A DNA stretch of 64,000 bases from positions 1,120,001 through 1,184,000 of the forward strand of contig CP084166.1 of the NCBI GenBank assembly GCA_021513695.1. Reading direction: 5' to 3'. Each line of letters starts with the position of its first letter. The stretch's first letter is position 1. Made by a program: the position numbers and the translations under genes. Origin of the DNA: Candidatus Heimdallarchaeum aukensis. Its GTDB lineage: Archaea > Asgardarchaeota > Heimdallarchaeia > Heimdallarchaeales > Heimdallarchaeaceae. The notes beneath the pieces were generated by a model. It searched no databases. It was given only the letters and a program-made list of their open reading frames with translations, and was not told the origin of the DNA. Positions 17,178 through 64,000 of the stretch are shown one piece after another.

Positions 17178-17427
17178 CTTTTTATTTATGCGAACATGTT
17201 TTTATATACTATAAATAATTTACTGATTATAATAATTTTTTCTGTTTTACCGTAAAAATAGAGAAAAAAAGTATAATGACGAAGGAATAATAGGCAAAAA
17301 CAGTTTTTTCTCAATACTGGAAGCAAAAAACAAATAACCCCCACAATTTAGCATATCATATTAGGGAAAACGCTTAATTATATTATGATAAAATTAATTA
17401 ATATACAGCTTTTTCTATGTGATTACT

Positions 17428-27496: not shown

Positions 27497-27571
27497 TGGT
27501 AGTCCCCAGGAGATTTGAACTCCTGCCCCCGGATCCAGAGTCCGGGATCCTTGCCACTAGACTAGGGGACT
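27497..27571 (-). tRNA. tRNA-Gln (anticodon CUG), CCA encoded
   Basis: Folded by hand. 7-bp acceptor stem (AGTCCCC/GGGGACT, A1-U72), anticodon stem CCGGA/TCCGG with loop CT-CTG-GA, T arm AGGAG-TTCAAAT-CTCCT, discriminator A plus CCA. Confidence 0.9.
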
Positions 27572-27606: not shown

Positions 27607-27681
27607 TGGTAGTCCCCAGGAGATTCGAACTCCTGCCACCGGATTCAAAGTCCGGAATCCTTGCCGCTAGACTAGGGGACT
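27607..27681 (-). tRNA. tRNA-Gln (anticodon UUG), CCA encoded
   Basis: Same cloverleaf as the neighbouring gene, with anticodon loop CT-TTG-AA. 35-nt spacer between the two genes. Confidence 0.9.
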
Positions 27682-27868
27682 TTTTATCTTAACTATTAGT
27701 CTTCTGTCGATTCTTTTTTTTAATTGTGTTTTAAACTTTTCTTTATCTACTATGCTTTATAAACTATTAAATTTTTTTGATTTTTTTCGACTTTTTTCTT
27801 TTTTTCTTTCTCTCATTCTTTTTCCTTATCAAAAAATAAATAAGAGTAAACTTACATTTTATATTATT

Positions 27869-34375: not shown

Positions 34376-34401
34376 ATGTTTTATATTATAGAGATAAATA
34401 A
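32644..34401 (+). CDS. PLP-dependent arginine/ornithine decarboxylase, SpeA-like (fold-III Orn/DAP/Arg decarboxylase)
   Basis: GIYPIKVNS (PLP-Lys context as in SpeA YPIKVN), IHAHPGSQI, DFGGGIPINY, CDSDGE. The 585-aa length is close to biosynthetic arginine decarboxylases. Confidence 0.75.
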   Translation: MTWSLNDSKLIYGVDQNDLYFLDINDQGELLLKLKDQSISFNEIINLVKSQFNSSSLSSVPSFTLRIPQLITEQISKLNTCFQSAIHQYQYSGNFQGIYPIKVNSLSYVLETIKANSPSYAFEAGTVNELDVLLSLLRDDKTRMIMCNGVKDSDYIDKIRGALNDGYSIVISLESCSESTTILDLIDHDLLKLALRIKPYPTVKSHWGSSSGRDSKFGLSIHEFKRIINLLEKRGVKDKVIAIHAHPGSQIIDIDGLRFFVLYLSNRYLELKRLGFTNLNNIDFGGGIPINYDNRLPSDILDNYVKTLVLTLKETITDSDVQPNIWIEAGRFLTAPSSLIIVETIALYSIFPSEESLNDHKAMISSMLEKITHPSSILNLFSHWTELQSPTIDSNVNEILKTEILMKHLKLAIREKMMNFDDEQKFNRIFDLDLDEIFYEIYSPEHILIGNFSVFNTIIDWLLVGQYFPILPIDNLDHQPVSLARLVDKTCDSDGEISIYHPVFNEEKILYTKDGFPLTVKDKKFNLMGFPIGCLPTNFPYYLVIALTGAYQDNIKMHHNLIEPLSSIIIKHENGQWNVLYYRDK

Positions 34402-46460: not shown

Positions 46461-48328
46461 GATTTACTTTTTTACGTAAAGTTTTTCACACTCTGTCTTG
46501 CAAGAGAGAAAACTAAAGGAAGTTTAATCTCTTGAACTCAACCAAGCCATACAATGCCATGAAGGGGTTGAGACAGACATCATACACGAATCGTGGGAAT
46601 CATAAAGAAGAATAGAAAGTTTTTCTTTCTTTTCTTCACTCCACGAGAGACAAAAAAGAAAGAAAGAAAGAAAGAATTACTCCTATAATAGAGAAGGAGT
46701 TACTTTCCTTTTTGTCTACTGGGACTGCAACCAATGGCTGAGCCCTCGGCAAACAGTGAAATGGGAAGAACTGAACCTTTGACCAGTGAGGTAATCAGTG
46801 ATAGTTGTTCCTCGAGGACGAAAAAGAGCACCAAGGAACTTACGAGCGATATTCATTGCCCCTGTGAGGTCAGAGTGGAAAGTGTAGTTACAGGAAGAAC
46901 AATGAACTAAACCTCTAACGGGACGGATAACTTTTCTCCCACAACGAGCACAGTAAGAAGATGTCCCTCTTTCTCCTATTGTTAATATTCGGTGAGGTTC
47001 AAAACCTCGAAGTATCAATGCTCGACGAAGAAGAGCAAGAACAAGAGAAAAGTTCCACTGATGAAGTTTCCTGCGAAACTTACGAGTACTTTTACCTTTT
47101 CCTTTCTCCTCGCGAACATGTTTAGGGTAACCTACAACGACGAAAAGGTCATACATTCGCGCATAGGTCTCTATCGTCTGCACAACCTCACTTATAAATT
47201 GGTGAATATATGCTCGTTTAACGTTTCTATATCTTCTTCGGAGGAGACTAAGAAAACGATAAACTTGATGTTTTTTACCCGACTGGTCATTTAAAGCTGC
47301 TTTCCTCTGAAGACGGGAAAGTTTGAGTTTATATCTATGATTGACTCTATTCCACTGTTTGGTATACCAAAATTTTATCTCTTTACTTGTTAATTTCTTT
47401 TTAGGGGTTAGTAACACTCCTGTAGCAGGAATGTTTATACCTAGATCTATTCCCAGCACAGCTGGGGGAAGAGAAGAAGAACTTTTTTCTTTAGTAGGAT
47501 AAAAAGAAGGAGGAGGAAGAACTCTTAGTTGGAAATACACCCACCATTCAAGTGTAGAACGTTTATATCTTAGTTCTAAACTTTTTATTCGTCCTTTCTT
47601 TAATTCCTTCTGGTGGAAAGTGCTCATCTCTAAAGGTAACCATAGTTTCTGATGATAAGGTGTGTTTCTTTTCCATGTATCTAACGAGTCTCTTATCCCC
47701 ACCCACCAACGAGTGAGAGTGTTATTCTTCTCTTTAGGTAGATGGACGAGAACGAACCTCTTTGCATTAATTAGTTGTCTTCTTGCTCTCTTTATGGGTG
47801 GACGAGTATTATTAGGTCTATACCCTTGTTCATATAACTGTACGGCTATATCTCTACACTCTTGAAATTCGTTGTGGGAACAATAAGGGAACATTTTCTT
47901 CAGATCGTGAGGGACATTCTTTCTTCTCTCTTCTTCTTTAACTTTGGAAGTAGTTAGCGTCAGTTCATCTAGTTTTCCTCTATGCACTCTTATTTTCCCT
48001 TTTTTAGTTTTAGTACATATTTTTCTTCTGTTATGATGTATAATTCTCACATATTTTTCTATTATCCTCGTATCTCTTCCCGTTATTCTCCTTAACCTTT
48101 CCTTCTTCCTCGTCGTCAATACCTCCTTCTTTATTCTCACTTTCAAGGTTTTGACGACGTCCTCCACCATCTTTCTCTTTTCTCCTTCTTTCCTCTTTTT
48201 TTGTTTCTTCTTCTCTTTTTTTTATTATACTTTTTTCCCTATAAAAACCCCTCTCCTTCCTCTCCTCTCTTCTCTTTTTTTTTTATTTTGCTGTCAACAA
48301 CTGTAAACTACGTAAAAAATAGACGCAT
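46461..48328 (-). mobile_element. TnpB-only IS element (~1.87 kb, second family) inserted in the PhzF-family gene
   Basis: Deleting 46461-48328 joins ..MCGH to ATLASAAVLFNEF.. in frame. TTTTTTACGTA occurs near both ends in inverted orientation (46468-46478 / 48309-48319). Visibly more G+C-rich than the flanks. Boundaries are ambiguous by 3 nt (CAT at both junctions). Confidence 0.8.
46716..48170 (-). CDS. tnpB: TnpB-like RuvC/zinc-finger endonuclease (484 aa), Arg/Lys-rich
   Basis: AVLGIDLGINIPA (RuvC Asp), IGERGTSSYCARCG (Glu + CxxC), HCSSCNYTFHSDLTGAMNIARK (CxxC + Asp). No similarity at nt level to the copy A/B family. Confidence 0.8.
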   Translation of the reverse strand: MVEDVVKTLKVRIKKEVLTTRKKERLRRITGRDTRIIEKYVRIIHHNRRKICTKTKKGKIRVHRGKLDELTLTTSKVKEEERRKNVPHDLKKMFPYCSHNEFQECRDIAVQLYEQGYRPNNTRPPIKRARRQLINAKRFVLVHLPKEKNNTLTRWWVGIRDSLDTWKRNTPYHQKLWLPLEMSTFHQKELKKGRIKSLELRYKRSTLEWWVYFQLRVLPPPSFYPTKEKSSSSLPPAVLGIDLGINIPATGVLLTPKKKLTSKEIKFWYTKQWNRVNHRYKLKLSRLQRKAALNDQSGKKHQVYRFLSLLRRRYRNVKRAYIHQFISEVVQTIETYARMYDLFVVVGYPKHVREEKGKGKSTRKFRRKLHQWNFSLVLALLRRALILRGFEPHRILTIGERGTSSYCARCGRKVIRPVRGLVHCSSCNYTFHSDLTGAMNIARKFLGALFRPRGTTITDYLTGQRFSSSHFTVCRGLSHWLQSQ

Positions 48329-51768: not shown

Positions 51769-52917
51769 ATGTCAGAGAAACGAGATTACTATGAAGTCTT
51801 AGGAGTTAGTCGTGATGCCTCAGAAAGTGAAATAAAAAAAGCTTTTAGAAAAAAAGCTATGCAGTATCATCCTGATCGAAATCCTGATGACCCTAAAGCA
51901 GCTGAAAAGTTCAAAGAAGTTTCTGAAGCTTTTGAAGTCCTTTCTGATCCTGAAAAACGTGCAGCTTATGACAGATTTGGTTTTGCTGGTGTAGACTCAA
52001 GTTTCTCTCATGTAAGTGCGAGTGACTTTTCCTCCTTCAGTGATTTATTTTCTACACTTTTTGGTGAGGATCTTTTTAGTGAATTTTTTGGTGGACATAG
52101 AAGAAGAGCTAGTGGACCCAGAAAGGGTTCAGATTTAGTAATGAATTACTCTATTTCTTTCTACGACGCAATTTTCGGTACAAAAAGAGTTGTTGAAGTT
52201 CCAATAAAGAAAGTTTGTTCCACATGCAATGGTTCAGGAACGAAAAAAGGTTCTTCTCCTAGAATTTGCCCCACTTGTCAAGGTTCTGGTGTGGAGACAC
52301 TAACACAAAGAAGTGGTTTCACAATTTTCCAAAGACAAATTCAATGCCGTCAGTGCAATGGAAAAGGGCAAATTATTGACAACCCTTGTCCTACTTGTAA
52401 AGGAACTGGTCGTTCAAAAGAGAATGAAAAAATTAGATTAGAAATTCCCCCAGGAGTTGATAGTGGATTTAGACTTCGAATAAAAGGAAAAGGAGAAGAA
52501 GGGCATTTAGGAGGGCCTAGAGGAGACTTATATATTAGAATAATAGTTGATGAACATCCCTTCTTCAAACGCAGTGGAGATGATCTTGCCGCTGAAATAG
52601 CTATTCCTTATCCAATTGCTGTTTTAGGAGGAGAAATAACTATACCTACTCCTTATGGACCAGAGAAGGTAAATATCCCCAAGAATACTAAAGATGGAGA
52701 TGTTATTAGACTATCCAGAAAAGGAGTTCAACGAGAAACTAGATATGGAATTAATCGTGGAGACTTTCATGTAGTTGTAAGGATAGACATTCCAAAGAAG
52801 TTAACATCTGAAGAAAAGGAGCTACTTACTAAATTATCTAAAGTAATGAAAATGCCAGAAAAACAGCAAAAACTGTTTAATAAGCTATTTGAAGAGATTG
52901 AGAAAAATAAAAAATAG
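51769..52917 (+). CDS. dnaJ: Molecular chaperone DnaJ (type I: J domain, G/F region, four CxxCxGxG)
   Basis: DYYEVLGV...[39 protein letters not shown]. Confidence 0.95.
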
Positions 52918-52980
52918 TTATTCTATAACTTCTTTTTATTTTCAGATACTTTTTTATTATGTAAATGTGATTTATTATAT

Positions 52981-53916
52981 ATGAGTGATGAAGATTTTGT
53001 TCGTTGTCCCAACTGTGGAAATCTTAACATTAAAGGTTCGACAAAATGCCTTTTCTGTGATCAGGAATTAGAAGTTTCAGAAGAAGACAAGGGTAAAGTT
53101 GTTGAAATTTTTTCCTGCCCTAGCTGTTCTACTGATTTACCTGTTGGGGTAAAGTCATGTCCCATTTGTGGATGGAGTGAAGAAGGAATAACAGAGGAAG
53201 AAGAAACCCCAACGGATAGAGGAGAATCGTTAGGTATTCCTCAAGTGGGAGCAAGTGCGCCTCCAACACCTATTGTTCCAGAAATCCCCCAAACTGAGGT
53301 GACAGAAGAAGCGAAAGAAGAAGTTCTTACTCCCAAGATTCCAGAAATATTGGAAGAAGAAGTAAAAGAAGTAGAAGAAAAAATAGTTATTGAAGAAGAG
53401 CTTGTTCTACCAGAAAAAGTATCTGTTAAATTTACAATAGCGTTCATATGTTTATCAATATTAATTTCAATATTCCATTATGGGCTCAGTTTCGTAATAG
53501 CTCTTCCTTCAGTTAAGATTATAGACCCTAATGTCCAAGTTATTCCTCTAGAAGGTGACTTATCAACTTCAGTAAAAATTAATGCTGCAGCTTTTTATTT
53601 ATCTGCAATAATATCTATTGCTACCGGATACATTATTTCGTTGTTCATTAGAAGAAGAATCAAAGAAACAAAGGATATCATTCTATGGTTAGGAATTTTC
53701 ATATTTATCGACATGTTAATTCACATTGCTATTCCTGCTTTAGCTACAATAATATTCTATCCCAGAGAGATATTGTTTATTAATTTAACAGGGGCAACAT
53801 TAGTGTTTTTAGTAACAAATATGGTTCTAATGTTCACCCCATTTATTGTTGGAGGACACTGGTTGTTTACAAAACTTGATAAACTTTATTTCCCTAAAAA
53901 ATATGCACAAAACTAA
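52981..53916 (+). CDS. Double zinc-ribbon membrane protein (311 aa)
   Basis: CPNCG...CLFCD and CPSCS...CPICG, an acidic E/P-rich linker, then about 4 TM helices. Confidence 0.6.
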   Translation: MSDEDFVRCPNCGNLNIKGSTKCLFCDQELEVSEEDKGKVVEIFSCPSCSTDLPVGVKSCPICGWSEEGITEEEETPTDRGESLGIPQVGASAPPTPIVPEIPQTEVTEEAKEEVLTPKIPEILEEEVKEVEEKIVIEEELVLPEKVSVKFTIAFICLSILISIFHYGLSFVIALPSVKIIDPNVQVIPLEGDLSTSVKINAAAFYLSAIISIATGYIISLFIRRRIKETKDIILWLGIFIFIDMLIHIAIPALATIIFYPREILFINLTGATLVFLVTNMVLMFTPFIVGGHWLFTKLDKLYFPKKYAQN

Positions 53917-53928
53917 AGATGTTACAAA

Positions 53929-54360
53929 ATGTACGGAGAAAAAATAGAAAAATTCTTGAAATATGAACTTGACAACATTAACAAACATTTGCCAAGAAAG
54001 AGGATACCACTCAAGAAAGGGTTGGAAGTAAATACTTATGTAAGTAAAGGTAACGATAAAATTTCAATTGACCCTCGAGAAATACAATTTTTGCAATCCT
54101 TATGTCCAAAGAATAAACTCAATTCTGTCTACTTGCCAATAATTATAGTGAGAAGAAGGGATCTTGGCGAAGGAGCGTATATAATTAGTGGTGAATCTAT
54201 AGAAGAATTTCTAGTTTTGAAAGCTATTAACAAATGGAAGGGCGATTGGGAAGAATTTATCAAAGAAAAAGAAAAGAGACACTATTTTTATCTTTATAAA
54301 CCAGATTTACTAGAAATAAGAAAAAAACTTTCTACATGCACTGTTATTGCTTTTAGTTAA
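53929..54360 (+). CDS. UPF0216/DUF61-like small archaeal protein
   Basis: 143 aa. ..LDNINKHLPRKRIPLKKGL......IDPREIQFLQSL.....YLPIIIVRR..GEGAYIISG.. resembles the UPF0216 pattern as I recall it. Tentative. Confidence 0.45.
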   Translation: MYGEKIEKFLKYELDNINKHLPRKRIPLKKGLEVNTYVSKGNDKISIDPREIQFLQSLCPKNKLNSVYLPIIIVRRRDLGEGAYIISGESIEEFLVLKAINKWKGDWEEFIKEKEKRHYFYLYKPDLLEIRKKLSTCTVIAFS

Positions 54361-54411
54361 ATTATGTGGGGAAACTTTATTTATTTCTATTCTTTTTTTT
54401 CTTGATAAAAA

Positions 54412-55596
54412 ATGAATTCTTACTCAATTTCTAAAGAAACTTACAAAAAAAGAATGGAAAAAATTAGAAGTTGGCTTGAAAAAGAGAAACTATCAGCAAT
54501 GATTTTCTTTAACCCTATTTCTATTTATTATTTAACAGGATATCGTTTTATTCCTACAGAGAGACCTATTTCTTTTATTTTTCCCACTGCTGATGAACCC
54601 TGGTTTTTCATCCCAAGGTTAGAAGTTGAACACATTAGAGAGAAGATACCTTGGATAACTTACGAGTACTATTTCGAATATCCAGATTTAAAACATCCTG
54701 CCAAAATATTTGTAGAATTATTAAAAAGAAAGAAACTCTTTACTGATCCTATTGCCCTTGAATCCTCTAATTTTTCAGCACATTGGGGATATAAAGGTCC
54801 GTTAATCACAGATTTATTAAAAGACGATGTTGAAACCAAACTTTTTCCTTATCTTATTATGGAAATGAGAAAAATTAAAGATGAAGAAGAACTCAAACTT
54901 ATTCGCGAATCTGCGAAATGGGGAAATCTTGCCCACAAATTATTACAAGAATATACTGAAATAGGAAAAGATGAAGTTGAAGTTAGCTTAAAAGCTTCTT
55001 GGGATGCAACAAAAGAAATGTTAGGAAAACTAAAAGATTTCATTCCACATAATGCGCTATCAGCTTATGCTGGATATAGAGGTCAAATCGGTGAATGGAG
55101 TGCAATTCCTCATTCTGTACTACAAAAAACAAAGTTTAAGGAAGGTCAAACACTTGTGACAGGAGCTTCAGCCAATGTTTCAGGATATTTGTCTGAACTT
55201 GAAAGAACAATGTTTGTTGGGAAGCCTAACGACAAACAACGTAAATATTTCCAAATAATGAAAAAAGCTCAAGATGCAGCTTTAGAAACATTTTCTCCAG
55301 GAATCCCTTGTAGCGAAGTAGACAAAGCGGCTAGAAAAGTTTTCAAAGATGAAGGGGTTTTTCATTTAGTTCAACACCATACTGGTCATGCTATAGGATT
55401 GGAAGGTCACGAACCTCCTTTTCTTGATATTGGGATAGAAGAAATTATCAAGCCAAGAATGGTTTTCACATGTGAACCAGGAATCTACGAATACAAGTTT
55501 GCAGGCTTTCGTCATTCTGACACAGTTATTATTCATGAAGATGGAGCAGAAAGAATCACTCTATATCCCAGAGATATTGAAGATTTAATTATCTGA
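54412..55596 (+). CDS. M24-family Xaa-Pro dipeptidase/aminopeptidase
   Basis: Creatinase-type N-domain followed by a pita-bread domain (HHTGHAIGLEGHEPP, FTCEPGIY). Confidence 0.8.
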   Translation: MNSYSISKETYKKRMEKIRSWLEKEKLSAMIFFNPISIYYLTGYRFIPTERPISFIFPTADEPWFFIPRLEVEHIREKIPWITYEYYFEYPDLKHPAKIFVELLKRKKLFTDPIALESSNFSAHWGYKGPLITDLLKDDVETKLFPYLIMEMRKIKDEEELKLIRESAKWGNLAHKLLQEYTEIGKDEVEVSLKASWDATKEMLGKLKDFIPHNALSAYAGYRGQIGEWSAIPHSVLQKTKFKEGQTLVTGASANVSGYLSELERTMFVGKPNDKQRKYFQIMKKAQDAALETFSPGIPCSEVDKAARKVFKDEGVFHLVQHHTGHAIGLEGHEPPFLDIGIEEIIKPRMVFTCEPGIYEYKFAGFRHSDTVIIHEDGAERITLYPRDIEDLII

Positions 55597-56520
55597 CGCT
55601 TTTTTTCTGGTTAATATAACCTTTTTTCCATTTTCTTTAATGAATATTGTGTCTTCTGCTTGAGCTACAGGTTTATTAGTTATCTCTTTTAAAACAGAAT
55701 ATCCGTGTAAAACATGTTGTTCTGTTAACTCTTCTAAAGCTTTTTCTATTTGTCTTTTACTAAATTTACTAACTAACCATCGAGGAGAAAAAGGTAATCC
55801 ATAAAAGTTATTTTTTATGTAAACAAACACTTCTCTGGCTTGAGAACTTGGAGTGTTTCTTAACTGTGAATAATGGATAAATATAGTGTCTAGATCATCG
55901 TCAATTACTATTCCTTTTCCAGTTGTTGAAAATGGTTCTATTGCATAGGCATTATTCTTGTGAAAAACATCTTTAGGTTTCCACAATTTTTTATTTTTTC
56001 CATAATTAGGAACAGATAATCCATCATGAAGAGAGTAGTGTCCAAGAGAGTGACCTGATAAGTTTGTTATAGGTTTGAATCCTTCTTTTTTGATTATTTT
56101 TTCAACAACTGCACCCACTTCGTAAACATTTACTTTATCGTTTATCTTCTTTAAAGCTGCAAAAAGTGCGTGTTCAGCAGATGTTTTTAACTTTTCAAAT
56201 TTAGGGTCAAAAATCTTCATTCTTGCTGCATCAGTTATAAAACCATCAAAGGCCACACCTAGATCTATTTTAACAATCGAGTTATCAGGTATTTCACTAA
56301 TATCATCTATTATAGGCGAATAATGTGCAGCAATTTCATTAATAGAAATATTTACTGGAAAAGCGGGTATTGCTCCTTGTTTTCTGATAAAATTCTCTGT
56401 TTTTTCAGCTATTTCTAGTAAAGATCGTCCAGGCTCGCACAAACTCAAAGCTAGTTCCATAGCTTTTACATGTATTTGTCCACTTAGTTTGTATTTTTTT
56501 TCTACTTGCATTTTAATCAT
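55585..56520 (-). CDS. map: Methionine aminopeptidase, type 2 (archaeal)
   Basis: IDLGVAFDGFITDAARM, GHSLGHYSLHDG, YAIEPF, AQAEDTIFI, plus the type-2 helical insert. About 300 aa. Confidence 0.85.
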   Translation of the reverse strand: MIKMQVEKKYKLSGQIHVKAMELALSLCEPGRSLLEIAEKTENFIRKQGAIPAFPVNISINEIAAHYSPIIDDISEIPDNSIVKIDLGVAFDGFITDAARMKIFDPKFEKLKTSAEHALFAALKKINDKVNVYEVGAVVEKIIKKEGFKPITNLSGHSLGHYSLHDGLSVPNYGKNKKLWKPKDVFHKNNAYAIEPFSTTGKGIVIDDDLDTIFIHYSQLRNTPSSQAREVFVYIKNNFYGLPFSPRWLVSKFSKRQIEKALEELTEQHVLHGYSVLKEITNKPVAQAEDTIFIKENGKKVILTRKKASDN

Positions 56521-56716
56521 TTCGTTAATATAATCAAGAAGGTATTCTGTTTTTTATTTGTTTTCTTAATACAGAAAAAGAGAAAAAGTAGATTTATGAG
56601 GACTAAATTTCATTTTTTTAAAAAAAAGGAGACTTTGAAAAGTAACGATAATATTAAAATAGAATAAATGATAAAGTAACAAGTAACTAAACCTTACTTA
56701 TTTAGGAGAAAAAAAT

Positions 56717-58471
56717 ATGCCACTTGAAACAAAAAATAACTATTTCAAACCTGTTGAACCAAAAAAATACATTGGACAGCAAGAAATCATTAAGAGTTTC
56801 AATGAACTTATAAGCAAGTTTAAAGTTGGAGAAACAGAGAAAAGGTCTGTTCTAATCATAGGAAATAATGGTACTGGAAAATCTTCGCTTCTTTTCAAAT
56901 TATCAGATTATATTAGTGGAAGAAGAGACATAAAAACAATTTACAACATTAAGCCAATAAAAGAACAAGTTGAAGGATTCTTTAGAAATTGGTTAAATGA
57001 CATCGATAAGCTTACTCCTAGCTGGGGAGGTATTTTTGAAAAGATCCCTGAACTTCCTCTTCTAAAGGATGATAATAGAATTACTGATGAAAAAGAGTAT
57101 GTAAAAAACTTTACTGATAAGTTCTTCGAAAAGATGAACAAAATCGATAAAAAATTAAAGAGTGAAAAAATAAGGCTTTATTTTTTCATCGATAATACTT
57201 CAATCTTTAGAATGATGAGATATTCTATTTTCTATAAGATTTTTTCACAAATTATTGATGAAATAGCAAAAAAAGGTTTCAATCTTTTCGTTGTAACAAC
57301 TATAGACGAACTTTTCCTTTCAGAAATTGATGTCGAAAAGAAACTTACTTTCAATTCTGAAATCTTCAAACTAGAACCATTAACAGAGGCGGAAGCTCAG
57401 ATTTTCATAAAGGAAAAATCTCCTGAATTGAAATCATCTGATGTTTTAGAGCTTCTTGAAAATAGTGAAAGGACATATTTTGATCTTGTTTTAGCTATAT
57501 ACTTCATAGAGAAGAAGCTATCTGTAACTGATTATGTTGAAAAGAACATCGTAAAACTGCTTGATATATCTGAAGAGGAACATGAAGCTCTCCAAGAAAT
57601 GAGCACCTATTCTGAGAATCTATTTCCTGAAGAAAGACTACTTAAGTTCATTCAAAAGGAAACTTTAGATAATTTAGAAAAAAAAGGTCTAATCGAATAT
57701 TTTGGTGACTATATCCGTTTTACTCAAAATGCTCTTTTAGACGTGGTTAAATTTAATGAAAAATTGTATTCTACATTGACAATAATTATGATCAAACTTG
57801 ATAAAATACATCATGATTTAGAGAGTAACATAATACCGACAGATATTGAGTTTCAAGAATTGAGAAAAATAACTTCACGAATTCACGATGGACTGTCATA
57901 CAATGTTGTTGGAGCAAAAGTTAACCAAATAATTAAACTACTAATTAAGAAAAAAGAGTTCCAAAAAGCTTATGATTTTGCTTTATTAAACATAAACAAT
58001 TTTGACCAACTTCATGATTTTGTAAGAGCAGCTACTATCGCAGAAAAGGTAGGAAGAGATTTAGAAGAAAAACACTACGCCTTTGCTGGAAAATTGTATT
58101 ATAGAGCTGGTATTTTTTACGAGACTATGAAAGAAGATTCAAAAGCTAAACGAGCATTTATTCGTGCAGCTGATCAATTTGAGAAACAATTTTCCTCATT
58201 AGATGCTAAAAACAGTCCTTATTTATTGAGAGCGCATATAAAATCATGTTTAGATTGCTACAGAAAAGCAAAAGATGAAACTAAATTTAGAAGAATCAAA
58301 GAAAAAGCAATCAAAATCTTCCCTGAAGAATCGATACATCATCGTTACATCAGTGAAATTAATTACAAGAAAATAGAAGCCATACAAGCCACTCCAATTA
58401 TAGAAGAACCAAGAGAAGAAGAAAAGAAATCCATAGATATCGACGATTTAGAAAAAGAATTAGAATTTTAG
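56717..58471 (+). CDS. STAND-like P-loop NTPase (AAA_16/Arch_ATPase-type) with a helical-repeat (TPR-like) C-terminal half
   Basis: YIGQQEIIKSFNELISKF....RSVLIIGNNGTGKSSLLFKL (lead-in + Walker A), RLYFFIDNTS (Walker-B-like). The C-terminal ~230 aa is made of paired helices (..YYRAGIFYETMKEDSKAKRAFIRAADQFE..). Confidence 0.6.
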   Translation: MPLETKNNYFKPVEPKKYIGQQEIIKSFNELISKFKVGETEKRSVLIIGNNGTGKSSLLFKLSDYISGRRDIKTIYNIKPIKEQVEGFFRNWLNDIDKLTPSWGGIFEKIPELPLLKDDNRITDEKEYVKNFTDKFFEKMNKIDKKLKSEKIRLYFFIDNTSIFRMMRYSIFYKIFSQIIDEIAKKGFNLFVVTTIDELFLSEIDVEKKLTFNSEIFKLEPLTEAEAQIFIKEKSPELKSSDVLELLENSERTYFDLVLAIYFIEKKLSVTDYVEKNIVKLLDISEEEHEALQEMSTYSENLFPEERLLKFIQKETLDNLEKKGLIEYFGDYIRFTQNALLDVVKFNEKLYSTLTIIMIKLDKIHHDLESNIIPTDIEFQELRKITSRIHDGLSYNVVGAKVNQIIKLLIKKKEFQKAYDFALLNINNFDQLHDFVRAATIAEKVGRDLEEKHYAFAGKLYYRAGIFYETMKEDSKAKRAFIRAADQFEKQFSSLDAKNSPYLLRAHIKSCLDCYRKAKDETKFRRIKEKAIKIFPEESIHHRYISEINYKKIEAIQATPIIEEPREEEKKSIDIDDLEKELEF

Positions 58472-58481: not shown

Positions 58482-59921
58482 GTGTCAGAAAAAGAAATTA
58501 GTAAATTCAGTAAAGAAATAGAAAATTTAGAAAATGAAATTTTTGCACTAAATAGTTCTCTAGAAGAACTACAAGCTTTTGATAAATATTATAGCGAGCT
58601 TTTACAAATAATTCAGAATAAACTACTCTCGCTGAATGAAAAGCTTCGAGAATTGCATGATAACTCACATAAAGAATTAACGAATAATGTTGAAACAATC
58701 GAGGAAAAAACAAAGAATCTAACTCAAAAATGGACTGAAACAAATAAAGAAACAGTATCAACAGAGTTAAAGAACATAGGTGAAAAGTTAAACAATCTAA
58801 AGATAAAATTTGTTGAAAGTTTAAATTCAAACAAAAAAACAATTGAAAACTTATCCCAAAAATTTGTAAATGATATTAACAATATTATTAACACACACAT
58901 ACAAGAGTATGAGCGTTTTTCTACTAATCAAGTTAAGACAACAAGAGACAGTTTTACAGACATGAAAAAAGAGTTATCAGAACTACATTTGAACAGCATA
59001 AAAGAATTAGAAAAGAATACAAAAGATATAAGGACTAATTTTGATGCCAATATTAAAATTAATGAAGATATTCTGAAAGAGAGTATTCAACACTTGAGAT
59101 CAGAATATCGTGACAAATTAACTATGAATATGGAAGGAGTTTTTGAAAGTTTTGAGCGAATTAAAGACGAACTAGGTAACATGGTTACAAATACTATCCA
59201 AAAAATCCAGAATGAACTTTCAGGAATTACAGAAACAATGGATAAATACCTTATTCAAGAGATTTCTAAGATTCAAGAAATCTTAGGAGATTATGAAGAA
59301 GGAATGTTAGATGTAAACAATATAGTTATGAGTAACTTCGATGCATCTAAAAATGAACTGTTACAAACTTATGATGATCTTACAGAAAAATACATTTCTA
59401 AATACAAGAATGCGTATGCAGAACTTGAAGAGAATTACATAAAGAATAATGAATCAATATTAGAGGGTTTAGTTTCTAAATCTCAAGAGATGGTTCAGAG
59501 AGCAAAAACTGAATTCAGTCAACAACAAGAAAATATCAGTTCAATTTTAGAACAAACACACGAACAAATTATAAAAGATACATCTTACTTAGAAAGATTA
59601 TCTCAGGAACAGTTCAGCAAAATACAGCAAAGCATAGAAAGTTCATCTACTAAAATAAAAACGACCATAGAATCTTCACAAAATGATGTTAATTCTGCTC
59701 TTTCTGAACAAACTGTATCTACTAAAGAAAAAATCAACGAGTTAATTGCTAATATCAAAAAACAGGTTAAAGATCTACAAGAAAGTTCATTGAAGGCTTT
59801 AGATGAAGAAGCGAAACTTAAGATTACAGAAGCGGATAAAGCACAAAAAGAAAAGATAAAGGTAATTAATCAATTGAAAAAGACTAGTAAAACAATAGAG
59901 AAAATTAAAGAAGAACTTTAG
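58482..59921 (+). CDS. All-helical coiled-coil protein (479 aa, GTG start)
   Basis: K/E/N/I/L/Q/S/T-rich throughout, with very few Pro/Gly and none of Cys or Trp beyond a single Trp. Lies 10 nt after the NTPase gene and 11 nt before the giant ORF. Confidence 0.65.
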   Translation: MSEKEISKFSKEIENLENEIFALNSSLEELQAFDKYYSELLQIIQNKLLSLNEKLRELHDNSHKELTNNVETIEEKTKNLTQKWTETNKETVSTELKNIGEKLNNLKIKFVESLNSNKKTIENLSQKFVNDINNIINTHIQEYERFSTNQVKTTRDSFTDMKKELSELHLNSIKELEKNTKDIRTNFDANIKINEDILKESIQHLRSEYRDKLTMNMEGVFESFERIKDELGNMVTNTIQKIQNELSGITETMDKYLIQEISKIQEILGDYEEGMLDVNNIVMSNFDASKNELLQTYDDLTEKYISKYKNAYAELEENYIKNNESILEGLVSKSQEMVQRAKTEFSQQQENISSILEQTHEQIIKDTSYLERLSQEQFSKIQQSIESSSTKIKTTIESSQNDVNSALSEQTVSTKEKINELIANIKKQVKDLQESSLKALDEEAKLKITEADKAQKEKIKVINQLKKTSKTIEKIKEEL

Positions 59922-59932: not shown

Positions 59933-62900
59933 ATGGAGTCCACGTTAGAGAAAATGGGTTTATCAAAAGAAGAAATAGAGGTTTACGCAAATATTGTTCA
60001 ATTTGGTTTCAGAACAATTGGGCAAATACAAGTATATACAAAAACAAATACTGAAACTATTGTACAAGCTTTAAATAAATTAGTAGAAAAAGGTTATATT
60101 AAAGAAATAAAACCAAGAAAGCCAGAAGGCACTTCAATATTCATTCCTCTTCCTCCTCAAATTAAACTTACAGAAGATGTGGCAAAGAGATTAGATAACG
60201 AATTATCAGCTCTAAGTAAAGAAGTAAGTGAAGATTGGAATAAAACAATCACTTTATTACGTAAAGAATTACTCTCTTTTCACGAGAATATATCTTCTAA
60301 CATTGGAGAACATAAAAATCATATTTCTGCTGATGCAAACAAATTTCACTCTAATATGAATGAACTTATTGATAAAAAGAGAACAGAGTTAGAAAACGCG
60401 ATTTCAAAAATTAACCAAGAAATAAAAACAATCCTAGAGACTGATGAAGAAAATCTCCAAAAATCTTCAGAAAGAGTAAAAGAAACAATAAATAATAGTT
60501 TTGATACTACTATTCACAAAATAGGTGAATTTCACGATAATTTCAAATCAAAAATTGAAGAAACATACCAAAAACTAGAAGATAAGCATAAAGAAAGAAT
60601 CGAGAAACAAAAAGAGAACATTCAAAATAAGCTTCAAGAGATCTCTGAATTAGCAAAGAGCAATCTTGACAAAAATTTAGCTGTTTTAGATGAAAATCAG
60701 GTAATTGTTAATGAAAAAACTTCTGATGTTTTTTCTGATTTAGCTGAAAAGAGTAACAGTGTTGGAAATAATAGCATTGAATCAACAAAGAAAACAATTA
60801 GCTCGATCATAGAGGAATATAAAGGAAAAATTAACCAATATCAATTAAATGTTAAAGAAATTTTAAGTTCTCTAAACGAAGAACTAACAGCTCTTGAGAA
60901 TTCAACGAATGACAACATTATTCAAACCATTACTCAAGCTAAAGATATCGCTATTTCTGTACTAAATGAGAATGAAAAACAATTCATAAAGTTAGTAGAA
61001 GACACAAAAACAAATGCAGTTCAGAAACTAAGTCAACTTATTTCTGAAACAGGAGAGAAGAATAACAATGCAAAAGAGGAATTAATCTCTGCATTAAAGG
61101 ATTATCTCTCCCAATTTGAAGAGAATAGCAAAAATCTTCTTGACTTACTAAAAAATGGAATAAACGCAGGTTTTGCTAATTTACAAGATGGATTAGAAAA
61201 ATCAATTACTCAACTCAATGAACAGATAACAGCTATGCAAGAAGACATAGAAGAATTTGTTGAGACATATATTGGCTCTTTATTCGAAGATATTGAAAAC
61301 ATTAAACAAACCATACTAACAAAATTAAATACAAATATTGAAAAGTTCTCAAAAGACACAACTGACAAACATAAGAAGAACAAAGAACTGATCGCAAAAA
61401 TAGAAAATGACTTCACTCAAGCTACTACTGATATTATTAAGAAATCAAATGAAATGATAGTAAGTGAAACAGAGAAAATATCTTCTGAAATAAAAGAAAA
61501 CAAAGAAAAACTGAAGGAAGAAAATACCTCTTTCCTTACAATAATTAATGAAAACATAGAGAGTTACAAGGACACACTTTCTGAAACTATGAAACAACTT
61601 TCTGAAAATAAGCAAGAGTTCAATTCATTCTTTGTAGAACACCTGGAAAACTTGAAAACTGAAGTAATAGAAAAAATAGAAGCTAATAAAGATACAAATA
61701 TCGAAAATATACAAAAGAAACTAGATTTAAAGAACGAAGAATATGCTTCAAAAATCAATGATTTTGTAGAAGAATATCTACAAAAGTCTAGAGATATAAG
61801 AGATGAAACACCAAATCTCGTTGAACTAGAATATACAAAGGCTTCTAACAAAATCAATGAACTAAGTTCTACTCTATCAGAACTTATCAGTGCCTTCACT
61901 TCTATGGTTAATGAGATTTATGAAAAAATAGATGAAAAAGCCGCCAACAAGTTATTTGGTAAAGGTGAAGGATTAAACTTCATTGATAGATTAGAAAAGA
62001 TCAAGAATGATAATCAAAACATAGCTGAAAAAGTAAAAACAGATCTTGACACACTTTATCGCACTTTTGAAAGTTCTAAAGAAAAATTAAGTGAAGATAT
62101 TTTTTACAAAATGAATAGACATATTGAATCCTTTACAAGTTATAACGAGGAAAATATTACAAAGTTTAAAGAATTCATGGAAAATACAAAGAAAGAAATT
62201 AAAGAAAGCTTGGATTCTGCAACAGGAGAATTAAAAAATAAGATAAACGTTGAGATGTCAGAATATAAAACAGCTTTTGATACACAAATTAATGATAAAT
62301 TCATAATATTATCTTCGTTAGTTGGTGAAGAAATAGAAAATAAAACAGAGGATTTACTTGAGATTGACACTTTAGAAGACTTTTTCACGAAGGTAAAAGA
62401 TGAAACCAGTACAAAAATTAAAGAATTTGTTAAAATGCTTGATTCATCACTTACTAAACAGGAAAAATCTTCTGATTCTTTGCACAAATCTTTAGTTAAA
62501 AAACTTGATGAATTACAGATACAATCTCTGAAGACACTAAATAAAGCTAAAATAGAGTTAGAAAAAGTAAATGATGAAATTACTACAGAGTCGAACTCTC
62601 TTCTTCAGACAACTGTAGAAAACATGGAACAAGATATTGAAAACACAATTACAGAGAGTAAGGAAAAAGCAAATGAAAAAGTGGCTGAAAAGAAAGAAGA
62701 ACTAACCAAAATTGTCACAGAGAGTATTGATGGTTTAGTAGAATCAAAGAATAGAATTCAAGCTGAAATAGAAAAAAGTAACAATGATGTTTTTGCTAAT
62801 TTAGATGATTCAATTGTTAAAAATATAGAGTCACATTCAGAGCTAGTAGACTCATTATCTAACAAGATGGACAATTCAATGGTAAGTTTACAAGCAGAAC

Positions 62901-64000
62901 TCGATGAAGCAAAGAAAGCTTTGGACACAGAAGTCAGTGATACTTTAGATAAAGCTTCTGAAGATTATAGTACTCATACTAACAAAGTCAACAAGGAAAT
63001 AGAAGAAAAGATCAATGAAAAAATAAACGAATTCAAAGAACAGTTTAGAGAAATCACTGCAGAGATTTCTGTAGATCCTGAGAAGGAATCACCTTTAGAT
63101 GAAACTACTTCAGAAATTATTGCTCAGTTAGAAAAAATAACGAAACAGTATCCTTCTCAAATGAAGAAAGAGAGAGATGAATATGTGGAAAAGATTAAAG
63201 AAACATTGTCTCAATTCCAAGAATCTACTCAAACTAAAATTGATACAATAATATCAAGTGTAAAGAAAGATGTGCAAAATGTTTTCGACTCTTCTTCTGA
63301 GTTCCTTGGTAAAAGTATCAATGAAATAGAACAAAGTTTTGAAAAAGAAGTAAACGATTATACTTTAGCGGTAAATTACGATGTTAATACACTTGTAAGT
63401 TCATCTGACAGCAATTCAGGAGCTCTGGTTACCAATATTCAAAGTACAAGAGACTCATTAATTGATACAATTGACGTAACAAACAAATCCATCGCTTCGA
63501 ATTTGGATACAATCGAAAAATCAACTAATGATGCTCTAGCTGTTTTTCTCTCATCTACTTTAGAACAATTGAAAGAGATTTCTCAAGGAACAGAGGAGAT
63601 TCTCAATCAAAAAGACGCTTATCTAAAAACAGTAGATGAATTTAGAGACAAATTCATTGAAACAAATACAAGTATTATTGACAAGGTTGAAAAAGATGTT
63701 TCAAAGACCTTAAAGACTATTCCTGAAAAGATCAAGAATGTTTTAGAAGCAACAGCTGATGCAATGGAATTAATGCGTAAGGTTCTATCTTTAGGAGCAG
63801 GAATTGAGCCTAAAGCAATTGAAGAAACCTGGGTAGTTTATGGTAAAGAGCAAGTAGATTCAGCTATAATGTCAATGTTTTCTCGAACAAAACGATCCTT
63901 AACTGCTGTAACACCTTACTTAAATTGGATGGACATCGAAACCTTGGAACAGGATGCTAATATTTCAAGAAAGAGGATTGAAATTATATCTGATATGGGT
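59933..64000 (+). CDS. Giant TrmB-family wHTH / coiled-coil protein, 3'-partial (>=1,356 codons, no stop before window end)
   Basis: I translated the frame from ATG 59933 to nt 64000 and found no stop. It is not in the supplied track because it is open-ended. The N-terminus MESTLEKMGLSKEEIEVYANIVQFGFRTIGQIQVYTKTNTETIVQALNKLVEKGYIKE is TrmB-type wHTH. The last ~55 aa resemble the start of a TrmB C-terminal domain. Confidence 0.8.
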   Translation, partial: MESTLEKMGLSKEEIEVYANIVQFGFRTIGQIQVYTKTNTETIVQALNKLVEKGYIKEIKPRKPEGTSIFIPLPPQIKLTEDVAKRLDNELSALSKEVSEDWNKTITLLRKELLSFHENISSNIGEHKNHISADANKFHSNMNELIDKKRTELENAISKINQEIKTILETDEENLQKSSERVKETINNSFDTTIHKIGEFHDNFKSKIEETYQKLEDKHKERIEKQKENIQNKLQEISELAKSNLDKNLAVLDENQVIVNEKTSDVFSDLAEKSNSVGNNSIESTKKTISSIIEEYKGKINQYQLNVKEILSSLNEELTALENSTNDNIIQTITQAKDIAISVLNENEKQFIKLVEDTKTNAVQKLSQLISETGEKNNNAKEELISALKDYLSQFEENSKNLLDLLKNGINAGFANLQDGLEKSITQLNEQITAMQEDIEEFVETYIGSLFEDIENIKQTILTKLNTNIEKFSKDTTDKHKKNKELIAKIENDFTQATTDIIKKSNEMIVSETEKISSEIKENKEKLKEENTSFLTIINENIESYKDTLSETMKQLSENKQEFNSFFVEHLENLKTEVIEKIEANKDTNIENIQKKLDLKNEEYASKINDFVEEYLQKSRDIRDETPNLVELEYTKASNKINELSSTLSELISAFTSMVNEIYEKIDEKAANKLFGKGEGLNFIDRLEKIKNDNQNIAEKVKTDLDTLYRTFESSKEKLSEDIFYKMNRHIESFTSYNEENITKFKEFMENTKKEIKESLDSATGELKNKINVEMSEYKTAFDTQINDKFIILSSLVGEEIENKTEDLLEIDTLEDFFTKVKDETSTKIKEFVKMLDSSLTKQEKSSDSLHKSLVKKLDELQIQSLKTLNKAKIELEKVNDEITTESNSLLQTTVENMEQDIENTITESKEKANEKVAEKKEELTKIVTESIDGLVESKNRIQAEIEKSNNDVFANLDDSIVKNIESHSELVDSLSNKMDNSMVSLQAELDEAKKALDTEVSDTLDKASEDYSTHTNKVNKEIEEKINEKINEFKEQFREITAEISVDPEKESPLDETTSEIIAQLEKITKQYPSQMKKERDEYVEKIKETLSQFQESTQTKIDTIISSVKKDVQNVFDSSSEFLGKSINEIEQSFEKEVNDYTLAVNYDVNTLVSSSDSNSGALVTNIQSTRDSLIDTIDVTNKSIASNLDTIEKSTNDALAVFLSSTLEQLKEISQGTEEILNQKDAYLKTVDEFRDKFIETNTSIIDKVEKDVSKTLKTIPEKIKNVLEATADAMELMRKVLSLGAGIEPKAIEETWVVYGKEQVDSAIMSMFSRTKRSLTAVTPYLNWMDIETLEQDANISRKRIEIISDMG

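Follow-up and report, generated by a model that had tools for sequence, protein, structure and literature searches.

The window, by which we mean the whole 64,000-nucleotide stretch of DNA analyzed here, ends within a giant gene of a Heimdallarchaeaceae (Asgard) archaeon, the last of three tightly packed genes that we refer to as a module. The features discussed below are, in window coordinates:

56521..56716, plus strand: A/T-rich intergenic region upstream of the module, presumed promoter (from the sequence read and gene layout)
56717..58471, plus strand: gene 1, STAND-like P-loop NTPase, 584 aa (weak Pfam matches, motifs, Foldseek)
58482..59921, plus strand: gene 2, partner protein, 479 aa, GTG start, single hendecad helix
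59933..64000, plus strand: gene 3, giant TrmB-headed rod protein, 1,356 codons in the window, ~1,440 aa in full
59945..60151, plus strand: TrmB-type winged helix-turn-helix (wHTH) head, aa 5–73 (Pfam PF01978)
60158..61948, plus strand: N-arm of the rod, aa 76–672, hendecad helix
61949..61981, plus strand: apex loop KLFGKGEGLNF, aa 673–683, a phase break and conserved helix-breaking turn
61982..63784, plus strand: C-arm of the rod, aa 684–1284, hendecad helix
63785..64000, plus strand: first 72 residues of a C-terminal phospholipase-D (PLD)-fold domain of TrmBL2/TrmB type, catalytically inert
61210..62487, minus strand: three antisense ORFs (61210–61416, 61564–61899, 62140–62487), shadow ORFs of the giant gene

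The giant ORF is a real gene under purifying selection that is truncated by the window end only. Translation from the ATG at 59933 is stop-free over exactly 1,356 codons, and an orthologue that is 88% identical to the window protein is collinear with it and complete at 1,440 aa; the window therefore lacks only ~85 C-terminal residues. Differences between the two genes number 106, 48, and 360 at codon positions 1, 2, and 3, respectively, and the codon changes comprise 297 synonymous and 165 nonsynonymous substitutions. The gene is missing from the list of closed ORFs, which gives the three antisense ORFs instead. We reject these as genes: their translations are rich in S, F, and L, as expected opposite a gene rich in E, K, and N, and purifying selection acts on the sense strand. 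An earlier sequence-only reading of the window, which had claimed that an open-ended frame was missing from the ORF track and that the three S/F-rich antisense ORFs were its artefacts, thus held on both points; two of the refuting cases that it raised do not apply, as recomputation found no overlooked stop among the 1,356 codons and purifying selection relative to the orthologue speaks against noncoding, low-complexity DNA.

The Three-Gene Module and Its Distribution

The module is divergent from a minus-strand M24 peptidase gene, its first ATG is preceded by a ribosome-binding-like site (AGGAGA), and a promoter in the intervening region is presumed from sequence and gene layout. The first gene encodes an ATPase with a Walker A motif (GNNGTGKS), a Walker B motif (LYFFIDN), and a TPR/alpha-SNAP-like C-terminal solenoid (net charge +8) with a conserved acidic tail ending in LEKELEF; its orthologues all retain the Walker A pattern GxxGxGKS and the Walker B Asp. 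Its Pfam scores fall below cut-off (AAA_16, 21 vs. 32.6 bits; nSTAND1, 18.9 vs. 27.1 bits), and an AF2 model (pLDDT 75.9) gives Foldseek matches to the STAND-TPR protein 6mfv (7e-7), Avs3, Orc1/Cdc6, and 2qen with low TM-scores (0.24–0.31), with the C-terminal half matching Sec17/alpha-SNAP. The partner protein encoded by the second gene (net charge −20) has a power of 48 at the 11/3 periodicity against 1.8 for the heptad, with a constant phase track along its whole length. Orthologues of 433–770 aa with the same single-register hendecad are found in all module-bearing loci, and their length does not track arm length in the giant (giants of 1,168 and 1,812 aa both have partners of 769–770 aa).

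The giant TrmB-rod family has so far been found only in Asgard archaea, and the three-gene module accompanies its longer members. It is present in Heimdallarchaeaceae, two other lineages, and Freyarchaeota-type genomes, in differing neighborhoods and in one case with permuted gene order, and full-length ATPase orthologues adjoin giant-family members in other Asgard lineages; neither ATPase nor partner neighbors occur at the loci of shorter family members (763, 968, and 1,089 aa). The Heimdallarchaeaceae module has conserved housekeeping genes around it (DnaK–DnaJ, M24 peptidases, and GAPDH), and this neighborhood is syntenic between genomes whose giants are only 30–39% identical, indicating vertical inheritance; at a Freyarchaeota-type locus, two Arf-like small GTPases adjoin the module. 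Matches to SMC_N or SMC_prok were subthreshold only and were confined to genes neighboring the giant.

The Hendecad Rod and Its Inferred Fold

Residues 76–1284 of the giant protein (~1,210 residues) form a continuous alpha-helix with a hydrophobic hendecad repeat. The 11/3 periodicity (3.67 residues per turn) has a power of 51, compared with ~9 for the 99th percentile of shuffles, whereas the heptad periodicity (3.5) has a power of 1.0; a canonical heptad coiled coil is hence rejected, and relatives of the giant and the partner proteins are likewise hendecad rather than heptad. The rod has a net charge of ~−85 and the Pro content is 0.9%. The N-arm keeps a single unbroken register over ~580 residues (aa 76–655). 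In the C-arm, the register slips by approximately one residue at three places (near aa 790, 1030, and 1200), and the N-arm has no such shifts. Conserved islands lie in the N-arm (TIHKIGEFHDNFKSK, aa 193–207; SRDIRDETPNLVELEY, aa 619–634), in the C-arm (SSDSNSGALVTNIQSTRD, aa 1157–1174), and at the apex loop. The earlier claim of ~1,250 aa of coiled coil is therefore upheld in part, as the long helical middle exists but is hendecad; its claim that the linker is expanded by more than an order of magnitude holds (more than tenfold), and the relatives of intermediate linker length that it proposed to look for do exist, with rods of 115 to 1,608 residues.

It is very likely, as part of the overall architecture (wHTH, hendecad rod, PLD-like domain, and fold-back), that the rod folds back at the conserved midpoint loop into two antiparallel arms of ~600 residues, ~90 nm long at 0.15 nm per residue. 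This pairing of the arms rests on comparative sequence evidence alone, with no experiment or atomic model. The conserved FGK loop is central in every size class (arms of 518/522, 603/612, and 624/630 residues), and the lengths of the two arms covary (r = 0.995). Two blocks of ~105 aa, mirrored about the apex (−255 to −150 and +140 to +243), are missing from the short Heimdall class, and, independently, in a Freyarchaeota-type pair that is 64% identical (1,168 vs. 1,812 aa), stretches of ~334 and ~315 residues have been lost from positions that mirror each other. Among 64 family representatives (669–1,812 aa), 24 have a Gly/Pro break no more than 12 residues from the exact midpoint, where 8.3 would be expected (P ~5e-6). 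The conservation profile is also mirror-symmetric (r = 0.42–0.65, z = 2.4–5.1), with the best axis no more than four residues from the predicted one, and the symmetry is seen separately in shared columns only, in the short class only, and in the long class only. Three pairs of conserved islands lie opposite each other in the inferred hairpin, where the C-arm island at aa 1157–1174 faces the N-arm island at aa 193–207. The sequences underlying the midpoint and mirror statistics are related, and the P values are hence approximate.

The same topology, in which a rod measuring tens of nanometers runs out, turns at a conserved central element, and returns to bring the N- and C-termini into one head, is that of SMC, Rad50, and MukB, and coupled, mirrored indels are shared with SMC arms. 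The giant meets the SMC/Rad50-type pattern of an intramolecular antiparallel fold by inference, without direct structural proof; however, SMC and Rad50 have an ABC ATPase head, a hinge or zinc hook, and a heptad repeat (3.5), whereas the giant has no such hinge or hook, has a head made of a wHTH and a PLD-like domain instead of an ABC ATPase, turns at an 11-residue apex loop without CxxC, repeats as a hendecad (3.67), and is encoded with an ATPase that is a separate, STAND-like protein.

The hendecad period is shared with proteins of quite different function, and two alternatives follow from such likeness. One is that the giant is an amphipathic 11-mer protein resembling apolipoproteins, perilipins, or LEA proteins that coats lipid or membrane surfaces. 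Indeed, its PF01442 (Apolipoprotein) score, 115.6 bits over eight stretches, exceeds the cut-off of 90, ApoLp-III matches occur in its relatives, and the amphipathic 11-residue periodicity is common to apolipoproteins A1, A4, and E. Those proteins, however, are secreted and built of proline-punctuated 11/22-mers, whereas the giant is cytoplasmic, wHTH-headed, acidic, and archaeal. There is no signal peptide, as the N-terminus is the wHTH; the scarcity of proline and the unbroken register leave no proline punctuation; the charge of the rod is unfavorable for anionic membranes; and, on the hairpin evidence, the two arms would enclose the hydrophobic stripe. We consider a lipid coat very unlikely, and the PF01442 match reflects periodic composition, not common descent.

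The ZorA tail, the tetrabrachion RHCC, and the peripheral stalks of A/V-ATPases are likewise long, continuous helical rods with this type of repeat; the tail of ZorA, from the Zorya system, is a 70-nm right-handed helical bundle (PMC11946911). ZorA models (PADLOC and NCBIfam) match the rod and the partner with E-values down to 8e-23. These matches cover the tail region of the profiles only, leave the MotA/ExbB membrane part unmatched by rod or partner, and reach 34–38 bits against NCBIfam cut-offs of 190–250; membership of the ZorA family is hence rejected, the resemblance being one of repeat type only, and the ZorB/C/D partners of Zorya do not accompany the giant. A second alternative nonetheless reads the module as an antiviral defence or sensor system, in which an Avs-like STAND NTPase acts with ZorA-like helical tails, the TrmB-like head being the part that senses invading DNA or binds to it. 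The STAND-TPR and Avs3 matches of the ATPase model, the ZorA matches, and weak LmuB, LeoA, and mad8 matches favor it. Against it stand the tail-only nature of the ZorA matches (38 vs. 250 bits), the absence of a nuclease or other effector domain from the module in domain searches, and the housekeeping synteny in Heimdallarchaeaceae, which points to vertical inheritance instead of a mobile island; we regard a defence role as unlikely.

The Terminal Domains

The head of the giant matches PF01978 (TrmB) over aa 5–73 with 31.9 bits (cut-off 25.6), and six relatives score 27–37 bits, bearing out the earlier proposal that the N-terminal ~60 aa are TrmB wHTH-like. It aligns by phmmer with residues 10–107 of Pyrococcus furiosus TrmB (3qph), a part of TrmB that takes in the start of its dimerisation helix. 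In this alignment TrmB RVYDTI lies opposite TIVQAL of the head, so that Tyr50 and Asp51, the DNA-recognition residues in the TrmB recognition helix (PMC4158304), are not retained and are replaced by Val and Gln; the relatives have no conserved Tyr at the Tyr50 position either. The head is neutral (net charge +1) and its wing retains basic residues (KPRKPEG). Winged helices are also able to mediate protein–protein contacts.

A conserved C-terminal domain of ~145 aa begins 72 residues before the window end and continues beyond it. Sequence analysis shows that this domain has a noncatalytic PLD fold of TrmB/TrmBL2 type, comprising the PLD-like half only. A test for the TrmBL2/TrmB PLD-like fold was positive, the sequence similarity of the domain to TrmBL2 is below significance, and neither the window protein nor any of six full-length relatives matched PF11495 at E ≤ 1. 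As the protein ends ~145 aa past the rod, there is room only for the PLD-like subdomain and the sugar-binding subdomain is absent. The sequence-only reading, which took the residues at the window end for the start of a TrmB C-terminal domain and suggested the PF01978 and PF11495 searches, therefore held, with refinement to the PLD-like, TrmBL2-type half.

These domains invite the reading that the giant is an ordinary sugar-responsive TrmB regulator with an overlong dimerisation helix, forming a parallel dimer with its domains ~180 nm apart. The significant PF01978 match favors this, as do source annotations that include 'sugar-specific transcriptional regulator TrmB', and TrmB itself (P. furiosus and T. 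litoralis; 3qph, 2f5t), a sugar-sensing regulator, shares the wHTH and, in the first subdomain of its effector domain, the fold of the C-domain. The giant nevertheless differs from TrmB in having no PF11495 match, no sugar-binding beta-barrel subdomain, no Tyr50/Asp51, and a linker more than ten times longer that is folded back. A parallel extended dimer also leaves the midpoint loop, mirrored deletions, arm covariation, and symmetric conservation unexplained, and this reading is very improbable.

A Proposed DNA-Anchored Role

The closest analogue is TrmBL2 (TK0471/PF0496; PDB 5bpd, 5bpi, 5bqt), a 264-aa archaeal chromatin protein of Thermococcales in which a short linking helix joins the domains (PMC4158304) and which binds DNA nonspecifically and forms stiff nucleoprotein filaments (PMC11840125, PMC4158304). 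In TrmBL2 the wHTH lies beside the PLD-like domain; in the Asgard giant ~1,210 helical residues take the place of the one short helix, and the fold-back at the midpoint would therefore leave the two domains adjacent, giving the same placement. Unlike TrmBL2, the giant does not conserve the DNA-contacting Tyr50, and its gene lies with those for an ATPase and a partner rod.

We hypothesize that the giant is a DNA-anchored spacer or tether. By analogy to TrmBL2, the head would dimerise and bind DNA with little sequence specificity, a proposal we set beside the loss of the TrmB reading residues. The strongly acidic rod would itself bind neither DNA nor lipid and would serve as a stiff spacer, longer in some lineages than in others; at its far end, the conserved apex loop would provide a site for docking or dimerisation. 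The partner rod and ATPase would control assembly, and the basic ATPase solenoid may clamp acidic helical bundles, as alpha-SNAP clamps SNARE bundles. This role is inferred in the absence of binding data, and the neutral head and the Val/Gln replacement count against DNA binding; we put it forward tentatively, as a possibility that falls slightly short of an even chance.

The main alternative, which remains possible, is a cytoskeleton-like or scaffold system unrelated to DNA, in which the terminal domains are protein–protein interaction modules and the STAND-like ATPase remodels bundles or filaments assembled from the giant hairpin and the partner rod. The head without net charge or the DNA-reading Tyr/Asp, the very acidic rods, the likeness of the C-terminal half of the ATPase to Sec17/alpha-SNAP, a binder of helical bundles, and the two Arf-like GTPases at the Freyarchaeota-type locus all favor a scaffold. 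Conversely, the two terminal domains are those of a chromatin protein known to bind DNA, and the hairpin brings them together in the same way; the basic wing residues are kept; and domain searches of the module proteins detected neither a filament-forming domain nor a membrane anchor.

Our preferred explanation therefore remains the folded-rod architecture combined with a DNA-anchored role, which as a whole we judge as apt to be right as wrong. The literature searched holds no description of the family, which is probably undescribed. Its known parts, a TrmB-type head and a TrmBL2-like end, are here joined by a giant rod that very likely folds back on itself, and in Asgard archaea such a protein would serve as a nucleoid-anchored tether, spacer, or bridge.

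The giant gene and its two ends

The frame opening at ATG 59933 (+) runs to the end of the window through exactly 1,356 codons without a stop, and it is missing from the closed-ORF list; both points had been claimed in the sequence-only reading and both held. The list does contain three antisense ORFs inside the gene, whose translated products are rich in S/F/L, in keeping with their being the complement of an E/K/N-rich gene. Two genes precede the frame on the same strand, with gaps of only 10–11 bp between the three (hereafter the module, with its third gene called the giant).

Features of the module
56717-58471 (+), ATPase
58482-59921 (+), partner rod protein
59933-64000 (+), giant, a TrmB-headed rod protein cut by the window end
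61210-61416 (antisense), ORF inside the giant gene
61564-61899 (antisense), ORF inside the giant gene
62140-62487 (antisense), ORF inside the giant gene

All three genes recur on a contig of another Heimdallarchaeaceae MAG (locus L012), with 87 % nucleotide identity to the window. There the third gene is intact: its 1,440-aa product aligns collinearly with the window protein (88 % identity, a single gap), and hence ~85 C-terminal residues of the giant lie outside the window. Substitutions between the two giant genes number 106/48/360 at codon positions 1/2/3, and the codon changes comprise 297 synonymous and 165 non-synonymous. This codon-position bias rules out non-coding low-complexity DNA, one of the possibilities that the earlier reading had named as fatal to its claim; the frame is a real gene on which purifying selection acts. 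ATPase copies that are 93–97 % identical carry the Heimdallarchaeaceae label.

The N-terminal TrmB-type domain proposed in that reading also held. Pfam TrmB (PF01978) matches residues 5-73 (numbered from 59933) at 31.9 bits, above the cut-off of 25.6, and a Pfam search finds the same domain in relatives. The head aligns to residues 10-107 of P. furiosus TrmB, a stretch that spans the wHTH and the first part of the dimerisation helix; in this alignment Tyr50/Asp51, which are DNA-contact residues in TrmB (PMC4158304), are replaced by Val/Gln.

The companion claim of a TrmB C-terminal domain held for the fold, without support from the corresponding Pfam model: PF11495 matched neither the window protein nor six full-length relatives. 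A conserved C-domain of ~145 aa, beginning at the motif LSLGxGIEP, closes all relatives. An AlphaFold model of it, made from a relative's sequence and a 16-sequence alignment (pLDDT 88.4), retrieved TrmBL2 at the top of a Foldseek search against the PDB (5bpi, 5bpd, 5bqt; E = 5e-8), followed by TrmB (2f5t, 2.5e-6; 3qph) and then by PLD-fold enzymes. Family profiles of the C-domain gave no significant match to PDB sequences; in a search with a 37-sequence profile, TrmB/TrmBL2 made up four of the top seven matches, but at E of only ~0.3. Because the Pfam and PDB-sequence searches gave nothing significant, the identity of the C-domain rests on fold comparison alone. The 37-sequence alignment contains no invariant His or Lys, and the catalytic HKD motif of PLD enzymes is therefore absent. 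Since the giant stops right after the C-domain, it lacks the sugar-binding sub-domain of TrmB, as does TrmBL2 (PMC4158304). Databases label members of the family as "hypothetical", "helix-turn-helix domain-containing" or "sugar-specific transcriptional regulator TrmB", the last of which is very likely wrong.

Periodicity, midpoint and length of the rod

The middle of the protein had been read as a coiled coil, which held in part: it is a long helical rod, but hendecad rather than heptad. The hydrophobic spectrum of residues 81-1280 has its sole peak at 3.65–3.67 residues (11/3) with a power of 51 (99th percentile of maxima in a shuffle control, 9), and the power of 1.0 at period 3.5 rules out a canonical heptad coiled coil. 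Lags 11 and 22 dominate the similarity autocorrelation of the rod, which contains 0.9 % Pro and has a net charge of ~-85. The 11/3 phase is constant over residues 76 to ~655, is broken at the loop KLFGKGEGLNF (aa 673-683; the apex, separating an N-arm from a C-arm), and undergoes three shifts of ~1 residue in the C-arm, near residues 790, 1030 and 1200.

The rod matches Pfam "Apolipoprotein" at 115.6 bits (cut-off 90) and, in the tail region only and far under family cut-offs, ZorA profiles; both matches are consequences of the 11/3 periodicity. An apolipoprotein-like lipid binder, the rival on which the first match bears, is very unlikely and ranks last among the alternatives. The tail of ZorA itself forms a right-handed helical bundle 70 nm long (PMC11946911). 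Membership of ZorA or another defence family is ruled out, as the matches are confined to the tail and far below cut-off and the module lacks an effector domain.

Among 24 Heimdallarchaeia homologues (30–39 % identical, ~1,257 or 1,433–1,489 aa), a conserved FGK loop lies halfway from the end of the wHTH to the start of the C-domain, with N-arm/C-arm lengths of 518/522, 603/612 (window protein) and 624/630 residues that are correlated at r = 0.995. Two deletions, of 106 and ~104 residues, set the short class apart from the long one; they lie 150–255 residues before the apex and 140–243 after it. An independent Freyarchaeota-type pair (1,168 and 1,812 aa, 64 % identical) differs by ~334 residues in the N-arm and ~315 in the C-arm, at mirrored positions, and arm losses are balanced in four more distant pairs (401/411, 221/216, 99/105, 87/102). 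One distant pair is a non-confirming case (P0073/P0146, 32 % identical), with unbalanced gaps of ~200 vs 480 residues, which we put down to the poor alignability of repeat-rich rods when identity is this low.

A Gly/Pro helix-breaking site occurs within 12 residues of the exact midpoint in 24 of 64 representatives (669–1,812 aa), most of these within ±4 residues, against 8.3 expected by chance (simulation P about 5e-6, an approximate value as the sequences are related). The per-column conservation profile is mirror-symmetric, the best of ~300 candidate axes falling within 4 residues of the predicted one (r = 0.57 for columns common to all classes, 0.42 for the short class and 0.65 for the long class, z = 5.1). 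Conserved islands on the two arms lie opposite one another in three pairs; for example, the mirror position of TIHKIGEFHDNFKSK (aa 193-207 of the window protein) is 1152-1166, overlapping SSDSNSGALVTNIQSTRD (aa 1157-1174).

From this comparative sequence evidence we infer that the rod very likely turns back at its midpoint, with the wHTH and the PLD-like domain meeting at one end as a single head. The alpha-helix rises 0.15 nm per residue, and arms of ~600 residues therefore give a rod of ~90 nm. The overall architecture (ends, hendecad rod and midpoint fold-back) is well supported, and we have high confidence in it. An ordinary TrmB regulator with an extended linker, third among the rivals, conflicts both with the evidence for a hairpin and with the lack of a sugar sub-domain, and is very improbable.

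A search of 1.84 billion representative proteins with the C-domain profile (E <= 1e-3) returned 129 proteins, in which the domain is nearly always at the extreme C-terminus of chains that reach 1,812 aa (1,827 aa when their cluster members are included). The N-terminal head family HMM matches 104 of the 118 C-domain proteins of at least 600 aa, and the middles of family proteins have hendecad, not heptad, periodicity. In some complete members the rod is short (350 aa, rod 128; 439–458 aa, rod 115; 517 aa, rod 259), and rod length is near-continuous from 115 to 1,608 residues, a ~14-fold range, answering in the affirmative the earlier question of whether orthologues with intermediate linkers exist. 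Two representatives, P0141 (rod 128) and P0117 (rod ~1,498), have very similar heads but very different rods. Three of the short-rod members (P0093, P0096 and P0120; 439–458 aa, rod 115; Hodarchaeota/Asgardarchaeia) carry an extra, unidentified N-terminal domain of ~110–130 aa before the wHTH.

Of 30 clusters looked up, 12 were organism-named and all 12 are Asgard (Promethearchaeota): Kariarchaeaceae, Hodarchaeota, Lokiarchaeota, Freyarchaeota, Thorarchaeota, Helarchaeota, Asgardarchaeia and Atabeyarchaeia, with the Heimdallarchaeaceae homologues besides. At least two paralogues occur in one Hodarchaeota MAG. Family taxonomy and gene context come from cluster and contig look-ups and are a sample, not a census.

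The three-gene module and its surroundings

In the window and at all Heimdallarchaeaceae loci, genes for a ~585-aa ATPase and a ~480-aa protein lie upstream of the giant, and the trio recurs in other lineages in differing neighbourhoods.

Giant and partner lengths at module loci of relatives
L006, giant 1,477 aa, partner 433 aa
L010, giant 1,303 aa, partner 481 aa
L007 (Freyarchaeota), giant 1,812 aa, partner 770 aa
L013, giant 1,168 aa, partner 769 aa
L009 (permuted order giant-ATPase-partner), giant 1,188 aa, partner 529 aa

The module ATPases are full-length orthologues (BLASTP 1e-22 to 1e-28; 13-sequence alignment A3), except that of L009, which had no BLASTP match at E <= 1e-3 and is placed by the 13-sequence alignment only. 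Walker A (GxxGxGK) and the Walker B Asp are both invariant in A3, and every partner is a single-register hendecad helix (global power 20–97). Three shorter family members (Loki, 1,089 aa; one of 763 aa; Hod, 968 aa) have no ATPase or partner neighbours at their loci. A partner helix lying residue for residue along the arms is ruled out: the partner stays constant at 769–770 aa between giants whose arms differ by ~320 residues, and elsewhere partners of 433–529 aa do not follow arms of 485–627.

The structure of the ATPase was predicted from seven sequences, leaving out the locus-derived ones (pLDDT 75.9); the top matches of the model are an archaeal STAND-TPR protein (6mfv, 7e-7) and Avs3. Fold comparison likens the N-terminal half to Orc1/Cdc6 and the PF01637-type ATPase 2qen, and the C-terminal half to Sec17/alpha-SNAP. 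TM-scores are low and Pfam scores sub-threshold, so that "STAND-like" is used here as a description and not as a family placement. The solenoid half is basic (+8); both rods are acidic.

Several side observations concern the module. All module ATPases of Heimdallarchaeaceae share an almost invariant acidic C-terminus, ...(D/N)(L/I)EKEL(E/D)F (window 58381-58471; alignments A3, A4), preceded by a low-confidence, presumably disordered linker and missing in orthologues of other Asgard lineages; it resembles, possibly, a short docking motif. Directly upstream of the module lie, at two loci from outside the Heimdall group, a CARDB-domain gene and a HEAT_2-repeat gene (L006 883-4889, L010 456-4548); in the Freyarchaeota locus, two genes for Arf/Ras-like small GTPases, of which one has a longin-like match, come before it (L007 1589-3708). 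These neighbours may be lineage-specific accessory components. A 121-aa gene without a Pfam match directly follows the giant at two Heimdallarchaeaceae loci (L001 14889-15254, L002 13868-14233) and a 94-aa gene at a third (L003); such a small gene, which would lie past the window end, could be an operon member.

Other features of the window
2046-4817 (-), 17419-20346 (+), 38077-41004 (+) and 51769-56520, ordinary genes: LVIVD-repeat/Big_7 surface protein, P-type cation ATPase, MMPL transporter, DnaJ, zinc-ribbon protein, DUF61 and two M24 peptidases
27497-27571 and 27607-27681 (-), tandem tRNA-Gln genes, anticodons CTG and TTG, 35 bp apart
29642-32266 (+) and 32644-34401 (+), Orn/Arg-decarboxylase-like gene pair
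46716-48170 (-), 484-aa TnpB-like, transposon-associated ORF with a Cas12f1-like TNB domain

The products of the decarboxylase-like pair agree at 577 of 579 residues (aa 1-579), and the first copy, just downstream of a KaiC gene (27752-29266), runs on into a KaiC-like segment (Pfam); either a very recent ~1.7 kb tandem duplication or an assembly artefact is possible. The TnpB-like ORF sits in a GC-richer patch (0.37 vs ~0.31), which hints at an inserted IS element. Other Heimdallarchaeaceae share synteny with the window over the stretch that runs from DnaK/DnaJ to the M24 peptidases.

Proposed function and significance

We hypothesize that the rejoined wHTH and PLD-like head would act like TrmBL2, as a dimerising, largely sequence-non-specific DNA binder; TrmBL2 blocks SMC and assembles into stiff nucleoprotein filaments (PMC11840125, PMC4158304). 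The hairpin of acidic hendecads would serve as a stiff and inert spacer, the conserved loop at the apex would be a distal interaction site, and the partner rod and ATPase would govern assembly. This functional reading is inferred, and taken as a whole it falls a little short of probable. The first-ranked rival is a scaffold that works independently of DNA, which we consider unlikely. Below it stands a defence or sensor module, likewise unlikely: housekeeping synteny, apparently vertical inheritance and the absence of an effector all speak against it.

No description of the architecture or the module was found in the full-text literature searched. The building blocks (TrmB wHTH, PLD-like domain, hendecad helices and STAND ATPases) are all known already; it is their combination that the literature searched did not contain, in which a TrmBL2-like head is split by a folded-back rod of variable length and genes for an ATPase and a second rod accompany those of the longer members. 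The giant can be regarded as a member of the TrmB/TrmBL2 family into which a folded, SMC-like rod of hendecads has been inserted.

A bolder version of the DNA-binding reading, unlikely but not excluded, is an Asgard-specific, nucleoid-anchored structural system whose rod length is tunable by evolution. Its TrmBL2-like head would grip DNA while a stiff hendecad hairpin of ~17 to 120 nm presented the conserved tip; with the second rod and a STAND-like ATPase bearing an alpha-SNAP-like clamp, it would set distances, or form bridges, from the chromosome to another cell structure or from one chromosome segment to another. If true, a prokaryotic molecular ruler or proto-nucleoskeleton would exist in the archaea most closely related to eukaryotes, working by a new mechanism that combines an SMC-like shape, a motorless head and a separate switch ATPase.

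The rods are of a size visible to negative-stain EM and cryo-ET, and close pairs (1,168 and 1,812 aa) could serve as natural ruler mutants. If the head binds DNA, the family would add a class to the chromatin-architecture proteins of archaea, in the lineage nearest to eukaryotes, and distance, not catalysis, appears to be what evolves in it.
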